Origin: Chloroflexota bacterium
GTDB taxonomy: Bacteria; Chloroflexota; Dehalococcoidia; JACPQD01
Direction: 5' to 3'
DNA: 64,000 bases
Assembly: GCA_016190665.1 (NCBI GenBank)
Contig: JACPQD010000036.1
Location: forward strand, 2,976-66,975
The translations under genes were made by a program, and so were the position numbers. The stretch's first letter is position 1. Each line of letters starts with the position of its first letter. Shown piece after piece: positions 28,901 through 36,195 of the stretch. Under the pieces are notes generated by a model. The model saw nothing but the letters and a program-made list of their open reading frames with translations, was not told the DNA's origin and did not search any database.

Positions 28901-30340
28901 GGAGCTGCAGTTTTCCCATACTCCTCTGACGGCCGCGTCCTCGCAGAGGCGCAACTGAGCAGCAAAGCGCTTGAATATTTAGTTCACATGCGCCCCTGTC
29001 TGATTGACCGCCAAGGCATGTTGTTCCAGACAGGGCTTGCTGCAGGCGATCCTTGGTATCGCTACGAATATTACGATCATTCGAGAGGGGCGTGCCGAAG
29101 CCGCGTTGTCTGGGCGTTCATTGGCACGCACGTCTCAGCAAGTCACGCTCCGTCGGACATTCAGACGAATCGAACCGTTAACAACTTCATTCCCAGAGAA
29201 GGGCCTGCCGAGCAGGTGTGGCCGCTGGCCCTCCTGAATTCGTCGGCGTCGCTCTTCTGGCTCAGGCAGGTATGCTTCTGTAGGCGCGAGAGCAGCAATC
29301 CAGAAGCCGACAATTATTATGAATTCAGCGGTGGCAAGGTTGAACAATTGCCAGTCCCCAAGGTCTTGACGGCAAACTCGGCGGTGAAGGCTCGCGCCGG
29401 CGGTCTTGGAGGGCGCTGCTCACAACTTGGGTCCCTCGTACCGGGTCTGCATCCGCGCAAGCTGTTTGAGACGCCGGGAGAAGCATACACCGACTGGTAT
29501 CGAGGCATTCGCGGGTACCAGGAGCCCCACAGTGGCCTGTACCTGGCATGGGAGACCGCCAATGACCTGAGAACGGCGTGGCAACTGGCCGTAGAGGAGA
29601 TGCGGCGGTTGCGCTGCCAGATGGTTGCGCTGCAAGAGGAGATGGACTGGCTCATGTACGGAGCGTACGGGCTTCTGCCTCTGGACCATCCTGCTGTCAA
29701 CCTCACCGGCTCCGAAGAGCCGCTGCCTTTTGACCGCTCGCTTCGGCCCTACCGTCTGGCCCAGAACGGCCAGTCGATACCCGAGACTTGGCCGGAAAAC
29801 CAGAAGGCCCTCTGGGAGGCCCGGTTACAGGCAATCTCGGAGAACGAACACGTGGCCCAGGTAGAGCAACCGGCTTACAAGCGGCGTTGGGAGGAACCCT
29901 TCGGCGACAAGGACTTCCTCGCCGCCTATGAATGGTGGCTGCGCGACAAGGCGGAATGGCTGCTGGAACACCGCTACGATGGCGGGCCAGTGAATCTGGA
30001 AATGTGGGCCAAGGAGCTCTCCAGCGACGCGCGCGTCGCGGCAGCCTACAGGGTAGCTATGGAGATAGGGGGCTCCCTGCCTGACGCCATCTACAAACGT
30101 GAACTGCGCTGCGACTTCGCGACGCATTTGAGGAGAGTCATTGAGGCAGAGACGGTGCCAGACCATCGCGGCACTTTCAAGAGCAAGCACGAGAAGCTTC
30201 GGGGAATCCACCCGGATAAGCACCTGCCCAACGGCGTGCCCAGAGAACGCTTCCGCTCTGTCACGGATAAGCCAGGCTGGTATGTCTGGGCGGGCAAAGA
30301 CCTGTGGGGCGGTGTGGAAGGAGATGTGTGGGATGCCTGA
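25973..30340 (+). CDS. Large gamma-class N6-adenine DNA methyltransferase (type IIG/Eco57I-like with PglX-like C-terminus)
   Basis: FLNGGLF, GSYYTP, motif I DPAVGSGAF, YGVDI, motif IV GNPPF, TRD-like segment, C-terminal VEQPAYKRRW. Confidence 0.88.
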   Translation: MCRRSKEEKRITSILQHLRSLDSYDSLLALFDALGFTYSGEPRSTADWPSAIRDAVSEFRLAGRHGTFGILYLEIPEQRMLGWERQIVSRALNTEPHSLFVFTNSQHRLWHFVHVRYDERTEQRRQLRRFVVDLREPGAAKRLRTTAERLSRLAIAPGERLSALELQKRCDDAFRVSEVTKDFLRSFVHIVDDLTKSLRKNNPSLLATDADALRQAQLLTDRLVFLYFVQKKGWLNDERDYLYKRFCACYQSKATEDTYYRERLLPLFRSLSHQSALRPRSENGTEEALPFLNGGLFDLPLSYGTANPTTDERVRVPNESLYPVFEDFLERYNFTTTEDTPLDVEVAINPEVIGTIFETFVLTSEKEPETNASDRRKATGSYYTPRCVVHFICRAAFRRYLAERTSADEEVLRQLIEYVPAEQMTGQQEVHLRELLSPAQAEEIRSAVLQMRACDPAVGSGAFPVGLLQEMVKLVTLLDLRIHGRSAIEGRNYAYDLKKRIIEECLYGVDIQEQAIQICELRLWLSLVVDYQTEESLPLHERIAQIEPLPNLTFRVRVGDSLLDQVFGRDWDVQTSRHHDLIGQITEAKRLYYASRSPEGKRDLEMQILSLQLQLLERLLEEERLVTGHDLPLLQDSISSKLRKKLEAVKERLEEIDQLLQRCRDARKLAAQPVQDTWEHARRFDAIRKNIGVSFVWALDFAEVFDPARRNGETRPPGFDVILGNPPFVTARKPDERERYRLRWPTSCYKKYHMLAPFIELALLKLLRPQGQLGYIVSNAFATRDFGKPLVEEVLTRVELLNVVDCSGLMFPGHGTPTCILLGRAIPGHSSKATAGRHFLPGAPRTATKLCGTKPGMGQLREEAEETELWAETEAGWETPTFSGQRVEVTEWPVSVTRSHPWCLNASGTDLKEWIEKGSSVTLVEFSGFSISYSTVSGMDPIFVLTEDCCRRMHLSDVSMLFVRGEDVRDWSIIPSGAAVFPYSSDGRVLAEAQLSSKALEYLVHMRPCLIDRQGMLFQTGLAAGDPWYRYEYYDHSRGACRSRVVWAFIGTHVSASHAPSDIQTNRTVNNFIPREGPAEQVWPLALLNSSASLFWLRQVCFCRRESSNPEADNYYEFSGGKVEQLPVPKVLTANSAVKARAGGLGGRCSQLGSLVPGLHPRKLFETPGEAYTDWYRGIRGYQEPHSGLYLAWETANDLRTAWQLAVEEMRRLRCQMVALQEEMDWLMYGAYGLLPLDHPAVNLTGSEEPLPFDRSLRPYRLAQNGQSIPETWPENQKALWEARLQAISENEHVAQVEQPAYKRRWEEPFGDKDFLAAYEWWLRDKAEWLLEHRYDGGPVNLEMWAKELSSDARVAAAYRVAMEIGGSLPDAIYKRELRCDFATHLRRVIEAETVPDHRGTFKSKHEKLRGIHPDKHLPNGVPRERFRSVTDKPGWYVWAGKDLWGGVEGDVWDA

Positions 30341-33300
30341 TCAGCTGGTAGATAACCAGACGCTGAGGCTATCGGATGCGATAAACGCTCTCATTCCCCA
30401 CGCTTCCATCGGTCGCTTTGCCGTGGGTTACTTCTTCCTCTCCGGCTTCAACGCGATTGCTGACGGGCTTGCCGGCTTAGATAAGCTGCACCTGCTCATT
30501 GGAACTACCACGAATCGAGAGACTGTTGAGCAGTTGGCGTTGGGTTGTCGGCGGAGGGAACTGGTGGAGGAGAAGATGCGCGAGCAGCGCTTCGCATCGG
30601 TGGAGCGCGCTTTCGGCGAAACGACTGCGTCCATTCGCCTGCACATCAGCGAGCTCCAGCCAGGCGAGCGCGAGGAACGGACCATAGCCACTCTGGCCGA
30701 TTTGATCGCCTCGGGCAAGATAGAAGTGCGGGTCTACACCAGGGGCGTGTTACACGCCAAAGCTTATATTCTTGACTATCGTGTGCCCCAGCCGAACTCC
30801 CGCGGAATCGGAATCGTTGGCTCCAGCAACCTGACGGAGGCCGGACTGAGCAGCAATACGGAGCTGAATGTCCAGGTAGACGACAACGCCAACATCATCA
30901 CAGGCGAGGGCTTGCACCGCGACCTATGCCAGTGGTTCGACCGTCTGTGGGCGGAAGCTAAGCCCTTTTCTCAGGAGCTCATGCGTGAGCTGCGCGAAAG
31001 CTGGGCTATGGCGCTGGCGTCGCCCTATGACGTCTATTTGAAGATGCTCTTTGAGCTGGTGCGCAGCCGCCTCGAAGGGGACGCTTCAAGGCTTGTGCTG
31101 CCAGGGGAGATCCCTCTGGCGGCGTACCAGAAGGTGGCTGTCCAGCAGGCCATTCGCATGGTGGACCAGTTCGGCGGCGCCTTTGTCGCTGACGTTGTGG
31201 GCGTAGGCAAGAGCTTCGTGGGCGCAGCAACGGCGAGATACTACTATGAGGCCGAGCGGCGTCGCCCGGCGATTATCTGCCCGCACGCGCTTGTCGATGA
31301 CTGGAAGAAATACAACAGCCGATGGCATCTCAATGCGGAGGTGCTGCCGACCAGTCTTCTCCGGGAAAGCTCCTCCGGCGGCGAAACGGGCTCGTGTGTT
31401 CTGGATGAGGACCGCCTTCAGGACTGCCGTTTCGTGCTCGTGGATGAGAGCCACAACTTCCGCCACGCAGACAGCCAGCGCTACAGGGTGTTGACTGACT
31501 TTCTCGGAGAGGCTCGTGATCGTAAAGTCCTGCTCCTGACGGCGACCCCCTATAACAAGTCGCCCTGGGATGTCTACAATCAGATAAAGCTCTTTCACCA
31601 AGAAGAAACCACCACCGTTCCCATCGAGCCTCGTAATCTGCGCCAGTACTTCCGGCGCGTGGATGACGGCGAAAGACGGCTTTCTGACCTGCTGGTCCAT
31701 ATGCTTGTCCGACGGACGCGCTGGCAGCTACTCCGCTGGTACGGCTACGACGAGGAGACAGACAAACCGGTTGACCCATACAACTTCGAGCCCTACATCG
31801 CTTTGGGGCGGCGGGCGTACTTGCGATTCATTGACCAATACGGAACCGTGGAAAAGAAGTTCTTCCCCCTTCGCGAGTTGGAGACGATAGACTACTGCAT
31901 CGACGAAGTGTATGGAGAACTGTACGGAGAGTCCCTCTATGACCACATCGTCCGGTTACTGCGCAGGCGGAAAGGGAGCGTTGGACTGGAGGGCGGCGCC
32001 GGAGAAGAAGAGGAATCCGTTGAGCGGGCAGACCCGGCGGCATTGACATACGCGCGGTACGGCCTCTGGAACTACGTAAAGCCAGAGTGGCGCTCCGACC
32101 CGCGCTACAAGAAACTGGTGCGCGCGGGCAAGAACTTGAGAGGCCTTATCCGCACCAGCCTTTTCAAGCGCCTTGAGAGCTCGCTGGGCGCCTTTCGCGT
32201 GAGCATAAAACGGCAGGCGACAGTTCACAGGAACTTCCTGGCGGCGCTGGACAACGGCAGGATCGCTGCCGGGGAGAAGGCATCGGAACTCCTGGAAATC
32301 GATCGAAGCGACGCTGATGAGGCGCTTCAAGGCTTCTTGCAGTCCTTGGAAGAGGCAGACGTGGAGCGCGGCTTTGGATACGACATCGCGGCCTTCAATG
32401 TTAACCAACTGAGGGCTGACGTAGAGCACGATCAGAGGACCTTCGGGATCATAGAGGGCCTGGTGAGCAAGGAGAAGCTCCCGCCCTCCCGCGACGCCAA
32501 GCTGCAACGATTCTTGGAATGGCTGCCGAGGCTGAGGGGTGCAGGCAAGCTCCTGGTCTTTACCGAATATGAGGACACTGCCAAGTACATTACCGAAAAC
32601 TTGCCCTCGGAGATGAAGAGGCGCAGCGCGCTGGTAACCGGTGATACTGATAACCCGAGCGGGTATGCACGGCGCTTTGCCCCGGTGGCCAATGAGTGCA
32701 GGGACAGCGTGAAGCCGGCAGACGAGTTGGATTTCCTGATCTGCACCGACATCTTCTCCGAAGGATTGAATCTGCAGGACTGCAATCAGGTAGTCAACTA
32801 TGATCTCCACTGGAATCCGGTGAGGTTGATTCAGCGTTTTGGGCGGGTTGACCGGATCGGATCGCAGCACGACAAGGTATTCGCCTTCAACTTCCTGCCG
32901 GAGAAAGCCGCCGAGCGCGAACTGGAGCTGAAGCAAAAACTGGAAGCACGCATTCGTGAGTTCAACGAGATTCTGGGGCTCGACTCGCAGGTAATGGACG
33001 AAAAAGAGAAAGTCAACCGCGAGGCGGTCTACGCCATTTACGAAGAGCGGAGCGGGAAACATCTTGGGCGCTTTGAGGCTTCAGAGGCCGACGTGCTTGG
33101 CGTGTCGCTGGCGGAAGCCGAAGAGTTCTTCCGGGAGCTTCGCGATAGAGACCCCGATGAATACGAGCGCATCTGCAGCTTGCGGGACGGGCTGCGGACG
33201 GCTCGCGCCACCGGCGACGGGAAGGTGCTTGTCTTGTGCCGCGCGGGCGATTTCTTGCGCCTCTACGTTCGCGATCTCTCGGGCAAAGCCGTGGACATAG

Positions 33301-33752
33301 ACACCATGGACGCGCTCAATCTCCTCAAGTGTGATCCTGAGGAGCGGCCTGTTGAACTGCCCAAAGGACTCAACTCCGTGCTTACGACCGTCAAGCTGAA
33401 TCTCGTGAACGAGGTCGACGAACTGTGGAAGCAGCGGAAGACCAAGACTCCCTTGAGCCCCGGCCAACGCTACGTCATCGGCGAGTTGGATCGGTTGCGG
33501 CAGACACGACTGGACATCGACGCGGAGGGAGGCCTGGCCAGACTCGTGGAAGCCGCCACCCAAACCAGGCAGCGCCGCTTCCAGCGGGCGTGCGATCGCT
33601 TGCGTCGGGACAAGGTTAGCGGAGAAGCGCTCCTCAGGCGCATGCGCCAGCTCTACTACGATTGCGCCCTGCATGTCGAGGCCGCCGCAACACGCGAGGA
33701 AGAGACCGAAAACAGAATACCGAGAATAGTTGCTGTCGCAGTTCTGACGTAG
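30333..33752 (+). CDS. PLD-nuclease / SNF2-family helicase fusion
   Basis: HAKAYILD (HKD) and GSSNLT; ADVVGVGKS, DESH, LLTATP, SEGLNLQ, QRFGRVDRIGS. Overlaps the MTase stop by 8 nt. Confidence 0.92.
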   Translation: MPDQLVDNQTLRLSDAINALIPHASIGRFAVGYFFLSGFNAIADGLAGLDKLHLLIGTTTNRETVEQLALGCRRRELVEEKMREQRFASVERAFGETTASIRLHISELQPGEREERTIATLADLIASGKIEVRVYTRGVLHAKAYILDYRVPQPNSRGIGIVGSSNLTEAGLSSNTELNVQVDDNANIITGEGLHRDLCQWFDRLWAEAKPFSQELMRELRESWAMALASPYDVYLKMLFELVRSRLEGDASRLVLPGEIPLAAYQKVAVQQAIRMVDQFGGAFVADVVGVGKSFVGAATARYYYEAERRRPAIICPHALVDDWKKYNSRWHLNAEVLPTSLLRESSSGGETGSCVLDEDRLQDCRFVLVDESHNFRHADSQRYRVLTDFLGEARDRKVLLLTATPYNKSPWDVYNQIKLFHQEETTTVPIEPRNLRQYFRRVDDGERRLSDLLVHMLVRRTRWQLLRWYGYDEETDKPVDPYNFEPYIALGRRAYLRFIDQYGTVEKKFFPLRELETIDYCIDEVYGELYGESLYDHIVRLLRRRKGSVGLEGGAGEEEESVERADPAALTYARYGLWNYVKPEWRSDPRYKKLVRAGKNLRGLIRTSLFKRLESSLGAFRVSIKRQATVHRNFLAALDNGRIAAGEKASELLEIDRSDADEALQGFLQSLEEADVERGFGYDIAAFNVNQLRADVEHDQRTFGIIEGLVSKEKLPPSRDAKLQRFLEWLPRLRGAGKLLVFTEYEDTAKYITENLPSEMKRRSALVTGDTDNPSGYARRFAPVANECRDSVKPADELDFLICTDIFSEGLNLQDCNQVVNYDLHWNPVRLIQRFGRVDRIGSQHDKVFAFNFLPEKAAERELELKQKLEARIREFNEILGLDSQVMDEKEKVNREAVYAIYEERSGKHLGRFEASEADVLGVSLAEAEEFFRELRDRDPDEYERICSLRDGLRTARATGDGKVLVLCRAGDFLRLYVRDLSGKAVDIDTMDALNLLKCDPEERPVELPKGLNSVLTTVKLNLVNEVDELWKQRKTKTPLSPGQRYVIGELDRLRQTRLDIDAEGGLARLVEAATQTRQRRFQRACDRLRRDKVSGEALLRRMRQLYYDCALHVEAAATREEETENRIPRIVAVAVLT

Positions 33753-33834
33753 TGGCCAATGGCCGCCGCTCCTAAATGGATTGCGGACTTAGCATCTTAT
33801 GGGGTTCCGCTCGCTACACTACCAGGTCTTAGTG

Positions 33835-34320
33835 TTACACACAGAGCCTGAGCAGTCCAGCGGAGAAGAGCTGACCAAGAATCGCTAGAAGGAATCCCAG
33901 AGGCAGGAACCCGCAACCTGCAACCCAACAGAACGGCAAGCGCCACCATTGGTCGTCACCTGAGCCAACAGCCTGCCGACAGATGCCCCAGTGTTTCCAG
34001 ACCGCAAGCATCAGCCACAACTGCTGACATGCATAAACGGGAGTAGTCCACCAAAGTAGTAGGACAATCGTCAAGACGAAAGGTGCGCAACCGCTGGCAG
34101 GAACTAATCGTGGAATAGCCAAGAGCGCGCTGGCGAAGAAGAAGCTTGGGGCAAGGATGATGATGGCGACCGACCAAGTGAATCTCCACCAGCCAAATCT
34201 CTTGAGTTGGCTGAAAGCATGGAACTGGGCTTGCGACGTCGTCAGTATCAAGCCAAACATGACCGCGAACACAGTCACAAAGACGATTACGTAGACTTCG
34301 ACGATCTGCTGCTGAGTCAT
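33835..34320 (-). CDS. Hypothetical multi-pass membrane protein
   Basis: About 4 hydrophobic segments; RBS-like GGTAGGAG upstream. Confidence 0.55.
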   Translation of the reverse strand: MTQQQIVEVYVIVFVTVFAVMFGLILTTSQAQFHAFSQLKRFGWWRFTWSVAIIILAPSFFFASALLAIPRLVPASGCAPFVLTIVLLLWWTTPVYACQQLWLMLAVWKHWGICRQAVGSGDDQWWRLPFCWVAGCGFLPLGFLLAILGQLFSAGLLRLCV

Positions 34321-34478
34321 CTCCTACCTGCTCGTGCCCAGGATCAAACCCTGGTCAATTATAAGGACAGCCGCGACCCCAAATCAACACTGCGTCTTTC
34401 TGAAGGTTGCGCCAGGCTTGACTTCCTCGCCCACAAGAGCGTCAGTGTACGCCTACGCTCAGAAACTTGGATTCAAGC

Positions 34479-34750
34479 ATGACAAATATCATAGCCTCCA
34501 GGACGGGGCCAACAGTTGGGAGCAGGTCCCTCTACGCCTTCCTTGCCGAGAAGGAGAGGCGCACCGGGTCCCGCCGCACCGTCGATGCCTACGCCCATGG
34601 CGTCGGCCTCTCGGGCAGGCATCCCTCCGCGGTTACCATCGGCGCCCGCCTGGCCTGCGTCAGCTCCTTCTACCGCTTCCTGGCCCGCATGGAGATGGTT
34701 ACGTCGAACCCGTGCGACCAGCTTCAGCGGCCCAAAGCGCCACCTGGTGT
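34479..34750 (+). pseudogene. Tyrosine recombinase N-terminal (SAM-like) remnant
   Basis: LYAFLAEKERRTGSRRTVDAY...TIGARLACVSSFYRFL...NPCDQLQRPK. The catalytic domain is absent and an internal deletion is apparent. Confidence 0.7.
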
Positions 34751-35110
34751 ACTGTTGAAGCAACGTCCTGACACTGCTCAAGAACGTATTTTCGTTGTAA
34801 ATCCGTCATTGGAACAATGCACTAGTTCACGCGAAGCCGCGAAGACGCAAACAGTTTCTTCGCGGATTTCGCGCCTTCGCGTGACTCGTTCATAGGTTGC
34901 TTCATGGCTGGGGTTGACGGTGAGGAGGCGCGGCAGCCATCGGCACGACAGGCCCTGGACCAGACGAAGGCCAAACTGTGTCAGTTGGCGGAGAGCATGA
35001 AGTTCTTCGGTGGGCCGCTGGAGCTTTCCGAACCCGAGAAAGGCGCGCTGGAAGTGACGCGGCGACTGCTCCACACAATCCGTGTGGCAGATGCAAGCAG
35101 CAGGCTTGAC

Positions 35111-35215
35111 CTATTCCTTTTCCTGCTTCCTCTTCTTCGCTTCCTTCTTGGCGTCTTTTGCGATATTTGTCTGTTTCACGCCCTTTTCTTTGTCCCTTTT
35201 GCCCTTGTCTCCCAT
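35111..35215 (-). CDS. Small Lys-rich basic protein (34 aa)
   Basis: MGDKGKRDKEKGVKQTNIAKDAKKEAKKRKQEKE*, with GAAGGAG upstream. Below the ORF-track size cut-off. Confidence 0.55.
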   Translation of the reverse strand: MGDKGKRDKEKGVKQTNIAKDAKKEAKKRKQEKE

Positions 35216-35629
35216 GCCGGATCTGAACTCCTTCCCGAAATGAATTGGCCACCGACAATCTGTTTCTGGTGCGCTAAGAAGATGCTATCGCTCAGCCCAC
35301 AACGATGCCGTCCACCCATTCTAGGGTACGTTGCTGCCAGACCCCTGATATTTGGTACTTATGGCTCACCTTGACCCTGGTTGACACAGGAAACCCCCAC
35401 CCGGTCTTTGCTGAGCATTATAGCCCAACTGCTAAGCATTTTCCAGTTAGGGCGGTTGCCTTCGTGCTCACTGCTCTTGACCCAGGTATGTGTAATAAAA
35501 TATGCTTTGTGTACAAGAGCAGGCAAGAAGATCAGAGAAGAACGCTCGTGATCGCCGTTGAAGCGTCGTAATTCTTCTTGTCAAGACCTGCGTGGTCGAC
35601 CGCGCAGGTCTAAGCTCGGTTCACGAAGA

Positions 35630-36034
35630 CTATATGGGGCGCGCTCCGAGGATGATCTTCTGCTTGGGCCGCACCACGGGCTCCTTCAACTCCATGGGGT
35701 ACCCGATGGCGACCAGGGCGTTGAAGCCACCCTCCAGCGGCCGAGCATCCTTGATGCCCTTATGCATCAGCAGCAGCGCCACACGGGTGCTGCTCTCCTC
35801 ATGGGGTCAGGTTCAGACGGTTATTATGAGCTTATCCCTGGGCAGCTTCTCTATCTCGCCGTCGGGTTCACCGGGAGAGATGCGCACTGATCCCTTAGGC
35901 TTTATGGTGCCTCGGTCATACACGTGAGCATCCCGAGCATCGACAAGGACATAATCCTCATCGCCTCGCTGAAGTTTCCTCAGCAGGTCCAACTCTGATA
36001 TGAGTCTGAGCGTAGCGTGGCGGTGCTGGTCCAC
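35630..36034 (-). CDS. Rhodanese-like selenoprotein with two in-frame UGA codons (V-U-T-U-P-H-E)
   Basis: N-half has LVDAR...LPRDKLIITV. The frame continues TGA-ACC-TGA-CCC-CAT-GAG into SSTRVALLLMHKGIKDARPLEGGFNALVAIGYP, which completes the rhodanese fold, ending at TAG 35630. RBS AAGGAG precedes the GTG. Confidence 0.82.
35772..35794 (-). promoter_or_regulatory. Putative bacterial SECIS hairpin
   Basis: AGCAGC-ACC-CGUGU-GGC-GCUGCU, starting 12 nt after the second UGA. Confidence 0.65.
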
Positions 36035-36195
36035 TAGCCCCTCCTTTCATCCTGAACTTGATTCAGGACGTGTCCTGAACTTGATTCAGGATTCATACTC
36101 CACCAACCCAACAGCAAGAATAGACCTGCCGCGATATAGAAGTCATAAGATAATGGTCAAGAAACATAGAATATTTGTAACGTTTCGTGCCAACG

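Follow-up and report, generated by a model that had tools for sequence, protein, structure and literature searches.

Most accounts of bacterial SECIS elements hold that their function depends strongly on spacing and that each serves a single UGA codon. Selenoproteins of the rhodanese type are divided into five forms in the accessible portion of a 2026 review (PMC13188914), where the family NF041203 is given as 'form 3, CxU, 1 Sec', and the accessible portion of another article (PMC9312934) lists a 'COG0607 form 2 (CxU)'. The word 'UxU' does not occur in the accessible text of the review or in its table. According to the accessible portion of a 2007 article, however, a UxU rhodanese-related sulfurtransferase was found on metagenomic contigs of the deltaproteobacterial symbionts of Olavius algarvensis (Zhang & Gladyshev, NAR, PMC1976440), and a literature search for 'UxU' as a whole word together with 'selenoprotein' returned, beyond that paper, merely an unrelated review. 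Two further bacterial selenoproteins, a Prx-like thiol:disulfide oxidoreductase (UxxC/UxxU) and TsoB (UxxxxU), are likewise described, in the literature as far as it was accessible, with two Sec codons a few residues apart in one redox motif. The former has a different fold and the latter a different architecture, and both are spaced unlike U-x-U.

Here we describe a rhodanese-like gene with the U-x-U arrangement in a 64,000-nt stretch (the window) of a genome of the Chloroflexota that derives from groundwater. An earlier note, made from the sequence alone, had called bacterial selenoproteins with two Sec codons one residue apart unusual; the arrangement itself was borne out, and its novelty is tempered by the 2007 description, as far as that text is accessible (PMC1976440). 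The Olavius form has the same arrangement in a rhodanese family and is an observation from symbiont contigs, whereas U-x-U is found here in a groundwater-derived genome and 10 genomes of its phylum. The U-x-U arrangement is already in print, thinly, and the window gene is a new member of this kind, in a new lineage. New here, relative to the accessible parts of that literature, are a survey of 52 genes, an apparent order of forms, co-existing C-T-U and U-T-U paralogues, hairpin covariation, and analyses of selection and phylogeny. Our main reading, to which we give a probability of roughly 0.87, is that the locus is an intact single-domain rhodanese-fold selenoprotein gene in which the first loop Cys has also been replaced by Sec and one hairpin would, by the mechanism proposed, serve both UGAs. 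The features of the locus are as follows.

35630..36034, minus strand: gene for a rhodanese-like selenoprotein, running from GTG through 134 codons to a TAG stop, with codons 74 and 76 for Sec
36040..36045, minus strand: ribosome-binding site AGGAGG, 5 nt 5' of the GTG, read directly from the sequence
35813..35815, minus strand: UGA1, codon 74, aligned with the first Cys of the C-T-C loop
35807..35809, minus strand: UGA2, codon 76, aligned with the second Cys of the C-T-C loop
35772..35794, minus strand: bSECIS-like hairpin, stem AGCAGC-A-CC / GG-C-GCUGCU, apical loop C-G-U-G-U
35785-35781, minus strand: apical loop of the hairpin, with G-U at 35784-35783
35630..35806, minus strand: coding region 3' of the UGAs (codons 77-134 and the stop), conserved, with dN/dS indicating purifying selection

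Readthrough from the GTG at 36034 gives ...LIITV-TGA-ACC-TGA-PHEESSTRVA...LEGGFNALVAIGYP...TAG (35632-35630), a product of 134 residues whose frame is bounded by an in-frame TGA just 5' of the start. The 58 codons 3' of the UGAs are free of frameshifts and of any extra stop. Translation with table 11 splits the gene into ORFs of 73 and 50 aa, and both halves are present as separate predicted proteins in public collections (P0002 and P0004). The window sequence reproduced all that the earlier note gives for the gene: its peptide, C-terminal signature, TAG and 134-aa length, and a hairpin that begins 18 nt from UGA1 and 12 nt from UGA2. Two tandem 20-nt perfect palindromes (36049-36068 and 36072-36091) lie directly 5' of the ribosome-binding site. 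About 10 more copies of the palindrome occur on other contigs of the genome, near genes for a BlaI-like regulator, a HicA-like protein, a CoA-transferase-like protein and others, and on another contig the pair is present twice, 2162 nt apart. We considered the palindrome as a regulon mark or specific operator and rejected this, as the copies adjoin unrelated genes; it looks like a dispersed intergenic repeat.

In groundwater metagenome runs, contigs from three samples of one study span both TGA codons without a mismatch: X2 (depth 24), possibly the source sample, and two further samples, X3 and X4. Furthermore, 661 of the genome's 2015 long open frames end in TGA, and the in-frame TGAs of the rhodanese family coincide with the hairpin. 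A sequencing or assembly error is at odds with the identical contigs, and a genome-wide reassignment of TGA with its common use as a terminator, and nothing was found in favor of either explanation, both of which we regard as hardly credible. Short contigs in runs X1, X2 and X3 match just 35776-35818 (43-46 nt, comprising the UGAs and the hairpin), differing at 3 positions within it and diverging beyond it; related U-T-U genes are thus probably present in other organisms of these groundwater samples.

The genome encodes SelB (353 bits), SelA (568 bits) and SelD (386 bits), all above the curated cut-offs, and each of five other U-x-U genomes tested contains a tRNA-Sec above cut-off (70-78 bits). 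In the source genome itself, an incomplete assembly of 107 contigs (96.55% complete; its 42 called tRNAs include one for Met but lack any for Cys or Trp), tRNA-Sec was not found by Rfam, ARAGORN, BLAST or nhmmer. The best Rfam match, at 43 bits against a cut-off of 47, is a tRNA-Ser; ARAGORN at default settings called no tRNA-Sec; and BLAST and nhmmer searches with the tRNA-Sec of five relatives gave no match. A relaxed ARAGORN run produced a 'tRNA-SeC' on contig C15 and odd calls on C64 and C84, which were rejected as they lack Rfam support. Because essential tRNA genes, including tRNA-Cys and tRNA-Trp, are also missing from the assembly, the absence of tRNA-Sec is weak evidence. Of the machinery that the earlier note had asked after, selA, selB and selD are present, and tRNA-Sec was not found in this incomplete assembly. 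The SelD gene (C56:50475-51407) contains one in-frame TGA, and SelD is therefore probably itself a selenoprotein.

The predicted protein matches the Pfam Rhodanese profile PF00581 at 37.8 bits (cut-off 22.2), with residues 18-107 aligned to profile positions 5-99 of 102. Its best match in NCBIfam is NF041203 (rhodanese_LYCAU) at 64.3 bits, below the curated cut-off of 115 bits. The same family is the best for all 10 relatives tested, at 64-90 bits and in every case below 115 bits, although these queries were trimmed to 107 residues, which lowers the scores somewhat. The loop position and a Sec at the second position of the loop, contributed by UGA2, are shared with NF041203 form 3, but the curated motif is C-x-U with a single Sec, whereas position 1 of the window protein is also Sec. 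Against NF045694, the TsoB rhodanese/DsbD fusion, it scores 15.3 bits (cut-off 805), being a 134-aa single domain without the fusion architecture. By sequence it belongs to the same fold family as the single-domain rhodaneses GlpE and PspE, 6mxv and BH2092 (3o3w/3nhv).

A word-index homology search returned as its sole match the gene's own 73-aa fragment; an exhaustive HMMER search returned 924 relatives at E up to 0.001. The closest full-length relatives have the common loop Y-C-T-C-P-x-E-x-S-S, and both TGAs fall on its conserved Cys columns, so that readthrough of the window gene gives the loop U74-T-U76-P-H-E-E-S-S, in which U74 and U76 fall on the C-T-C columns that immediately follow the conserved Y/V. 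The alignment of relatives thus agrees with the proposal that the two UGAs lie where rhodaneses of this type have their active-site C-x-C or C-x-U loop. In a 46-row alignment, 40 of 45 Cys-form relatives have Cys at position 74 and 35 have it at position 76; five retain the first Cys only, none the second only, and five neither. Sec is always at the second loop position, although none of the 45 Cys forms keeps the second Cys alone. The family-conserved residues E79, S82, L89, G93, L100, G102, G103 and P113 are all present in the window protein. The loop of this family has a conserved Glu and no Arg, and is two residues longer than the classic C-x4-[RS]-[ST] loop of GlpE/PspE-type rhodaneses. 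Of the solved relatives, BH2092 has its catalytic Cys aligned to position 74 and 6mxv to position 76. The loop is also where three short predicted proteins terminate, two of them (P0019 and P0086) with '...VTVCT' and the third (P0151) with '...VTV'; because they end exactly there, they bear the signature of gene callers stopping at UGA. Other HMMER matches include P0003, a predicted protein of 2327 residues with 16 separate stretches matching the window rhodanese domain, and several proteins with 4-8 repeats.

Recurrence of the arrangement was examined by six-frame searches of the source genome, of 60 relatives and of two sets of 401 genomes, one from the class and one from the phylum, with one metagenome scan and three extra regions added. 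The phylum tally is 46 of 401 genomes including two unpublished genomes, whose loci were excluded, and 44 of 399 without them. In total, 52 Sec-form genes were verified at the DNA level (50 distinct 84-nt rows), consisting of 38 C-x-U, 14 U-x-U and no U-x-C genes. The second loop codon is TGA in all 52, and the first is TGA in the window gene and 13 others. The occurrence of TGA-NNN-TGA in 13 further homologous genes makes it more than chance: two in-frame UGAs sit on the conserved Cys columns, and do so in 14 genes. These are distributed over 11 genomes, the source genome and 10 others of the same phylum, and one metagenome contig.

U-x-U carriers: source genome G000, two genes (the window gene and C18:11491-11790); G007; G021; G023; G043; G174; G407; G452; G479, two genes; G660; G667; one metagenome contig

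The family appears to have passed in order from C-x-C through C-x-U to U-x-U, as suggested by the distribution of forms, with no U-x-C among the 52 genes. The source genome contains three Sec-containing rhodanese paralogues in addition to the window gene: C67:75155-75484 (C-T-U), C18:11491-11790 (U-T-U) and C33:35859-36125 (C-G-U, with a longer loop), catalogued as loci L023, L024 and L026. The genome total is four genes of the rhodanese family, two of which are di-Sec. In some genomes a C-x-U rhodanese domain forms the C-terminal end of a frame of 530-820 residues (among them L041 on G003:C28 and L047 on G072:C8), and in L047 the part 5' of the rhodanese domain resembles a multi-pass membrane transporter.

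In the phylogeny, the window gene falls in a sub-clade (100/97 support) characterized by '...VTV-x-T-U' and comprising three U-T-U members, namely the window gene, L085 and L115, the latter two at 58-60% identity to the window gene, and five C-T-U members. Given the well-supported branches of the 53-row tree, the U-T-U label must have changed at least twice; the interior of the sub-clade is a polytomy, which affects the order of its members and the monophyly of U-T-U. Both the source genome and G660 carry one U-T-U and one C-T-U copy within this sub-clade, the C-T-U copy of the source genome being L023. The earlier note had offered as its alternative that the first TGA is a nonsense mutation in a C-x-U gene, which here would mean a recent TGY-to-TGA change in a C-T-U gene, leaving a young pseudogene that yields the 73-residue fragment only. 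Such an origin would suit the preponderance of C-T-U in the window gene's own sub-clade (five of eight members, including the paralogue in the same genome), the long terminal branch of the window gene (0.52), and the splitting of the gene by gene callers into pieces of 73 and 50 aa (P0002 and P0004). However, close homologues do not always have TGY at the first position: there are 13 other genes with TGA at this position, two of which (L085 and L115) belong to the same sub-clade, and P0151 is also truncated at the position of codon 74. Moreover, the 58 downstream codons are open, the hairpin and the family-conserved residues are intact, and the region after the UGAs is the more conserved part of the gene, as detailed below. 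We consider a nonsense mutation very unlikely.

If the sequence 3' of the UGAs were no longer translated, relaxed selection would be anticipated there. Instead, for pairs including the window gene, post-UGA dN/dS is 0.16-0.23 where dS is not saturated, and post-UGA dN (0.23-0.33) is lower than pre-UGA dN (0.42-0.50). Closer relatives show post-UGA dN/dS of 0.025-0.074, including pairs of U-T-U with C-T-U genes, and dN/dS is below 0.26 wherever computable. The post-UGA region is under purifying selection, and no relaxation of the 3' half is seen. Together with the 13 other genes, this tells against the nonsense mutation that the earlier note had raised.

The window hairpin (35794-35772) has 9 pairs including one A.C mismatch and the loop CGUGU. 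Each of the 52 Sec forms has, in identical alignment columns with respect to the second UGA, a stem G-Y-G-C-C / G-G-C-R-C with the loop C-G-U-G-Y; all five core pairs form in 46 genes and four in the other 6, and the loop G-U is present in 44. Pair 36-48, whose two bases are the third positions of a Ser (AGY) and an Ala (GCR) codon, is CG in 42 genes, UA in 6, UG in 2, GC in 1 and CC (broken) in 1; this pair covaries, with compensatory changes at synonymous sites. In the U-T-U gene L108 (G452:C412), pair 38-46 is U-A as opposed to C-G elsewhere, by way of an Ala-to-Val and an Ala-to-Thr change; RNA pairing in L108 is kept at the cost of protein change (S-V-R-A-T in place of the usual S-A-R-A-A). 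For the first 23 rows, RNAalifold predicts exactly the conserved helix, and the covariation score of these rows is 0.184, a value that none of 500 shuffles reaches (shuffled mean 0.099). The covariation score is much the same when the partners are shifted by -3 columns, but 55% of cells are then paired as opposed to 80%. On its own, the window hairpin is not unusually stable (z -1.0, with 30 of 200 shuffles folding equally well), and therefore the support for the hairpin is comparative.

Comparison was also made with 20 Cys-form controls, mostly from Acidobacteriota. On average 3.15 of the five core pairs are formed in these as opposed to 4.78 in the 23 Sec forms (Mann-Whitney p 1.2e-5, a value that overstates the difference, given the different phyla of the two groups and the kinship among rows). 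Fold energies are -6.4 and -9.8 kcal/mol, respectively, and the p-values of this comparison are to be read with the same caution. The controls have CGC or AGG at the position of the Sec-form CGU in an otherwise much alike peptide. Because the hairpin overlaps the conserved S-A-R-A-A peptide, its conservation is partly due to coding. A gathering scan of the window with Rfam gave no matches, and ARAGORN called no tRNAs in it.

The hairpin resembles the E. coli fdhF-type SECIS in lying within the gene just 3' of the UGA, in the G-U of its apical loop and in its spacing, which is 12 nt from UGA2 as compared with 11 nt from UGA to SECIS in the accessible description of E. coli (PMC8659212). It differs in that the core stem of the family is short, at 5 bp (9 in the window gene), and in that it would also serve a UGA 6 nt further upstream, for which the spacer of 18 nt is 7 nt longer than the E. 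coli value. The position of the hairpin is identical in C-x-U and U-x-U genes, anchored to UGA2 in 52 of 52. Most simply, the SECIS of an ancestral C-x-U gene would also serve the upstream UGA, and the earlier note's suggestion that one SECIS may serve two nearby UGAs fits these comparative data, in which C-x-U and U-x-U genes alike have one conserved hairpin anchored to UGA2. We also considered whether U-x-U genes have a longer stem and set this aside, given that pair 34-50 is formed in 6 of 14 U-x-U and 12 of 38 C-x-U genes (Fisher p 0.52).

The same observations could be taken to mean that both UGAs are recoded but UGA1 only poorly, as a selenium-dependent attenuator, or that UGA1 is read by a near-cognate Cys or Trp tRNA. 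This would accord with the 18-nt spacer of UGA1, beside 12 nt for UGA2 and the 11 nt described for E. coli, with the anchoring of the hairpin to UGA2 without any shift in U-x-U genes, and with stems in U-x-U genes that are not longer. Nevertheless, 14 genes have kept U-x-U together with a conserved sequence downstream of it, and the source genome and G660 each contain C-T-U beside U-T-U paralogues, both of which argue for a selected difference at the protein level, and the bacterial selenoproteins with UxxU and UxxxxU motifs, as far as their descriptions were accessible, show that close UGAs are tolerated. We judge inefficient or near-cognate decoding of UGA1 to be unlikely, if somewhat less so than a nonsense mutation.

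We return to a single hairpin acting on both codons. What we infer is that Sec is inserted at each of the two codons, that one hairpin is used twice, and the chemistry outlined below. With the ribosome at UGA1 the hairpin would lie 18 nt ahead, and SelB.GTP.Sec-tRNA(Sec) bound to the G-U loop could deliver Sec. Two codons on, UGA2 would occupy the A site with the same hairpin, still unmelted, 12 nt downstream, and a second SelB complex could deliver the second Sec. The product would carry two selenols one residue apart in the rhodanese loop, which could cycle between diselenol and diselenide or carry a chalcogen adduct, forming a low-potential redox or sulfur/selenium-transfer center. The loop may be a redox-active or chalcogen-carrying dithiol/diselenol center rather than that of a classic thiosulfate sulfurtransferase, and a diselenide-forming role of the U-T-U rhodanese in sulfur or selenium transfer is conceivable. 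For the fuller account, in which one hairpin is used twice within three codons (at 18 and 12 nt) to yield a diselenide-capable U-x-U center, reached by the ordered path C-x-C, C-x-U, U-x-U and with the paralogues retained, the balance is slightly in favor.

Genomic context offers no functional clue. The window gene stands alone, with a Trm112-like gene on one side and, on the other, a stretch without recognizable genes beside an SNF2/PLD helicase; PTPS/QueD-like and methyltransferase genes are also among its neighbors. Among 26 Sec-form loci there is no widely shared neighbor: a ferritin-like ORF is common to three and an MBL-fold/rhodanese protein to two, and an apparent cluster of neighbors at 21 loci was discarded on finding that it consists of the N-terminal halves of the rhodanese genes themselves. 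The SNF2/PLD-domain helicase (1203 residues, 30141-33752) is followed by about 1.8 kb (33800-35600) without Pfam-recognizable ORFs that adjoins the rhodanese gene, and the helicase and ORF-poor stretch together (30141-35600) may be a remnant of a defense or mobile element.

Gene callers split U-x-U genes, as with P0002 and P0004. The di-Sec forms are under-annotated, as the table of the 2026 review, in its accessible form, gives the family as 'CxU, 1 Sec' (PMC13188914). The 14 genes with two UGAs and 38 with one, all with the same hairpin, provide a natural comparison for the spacing tolerance of SelB, and for asking if a single element can be reloaded in the course of two translocations. The contribution of a diselenide to the rhodanese loop could be measured on the matched Cys/Cys, Cys/Sec and Sec/Sec versions of the active site. 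If the double use of the hairpin is true, C-T-U and U-T-U paralogues side by side in at least two genomes would imply distinct selenenylsulfide and diselenide redox roles.
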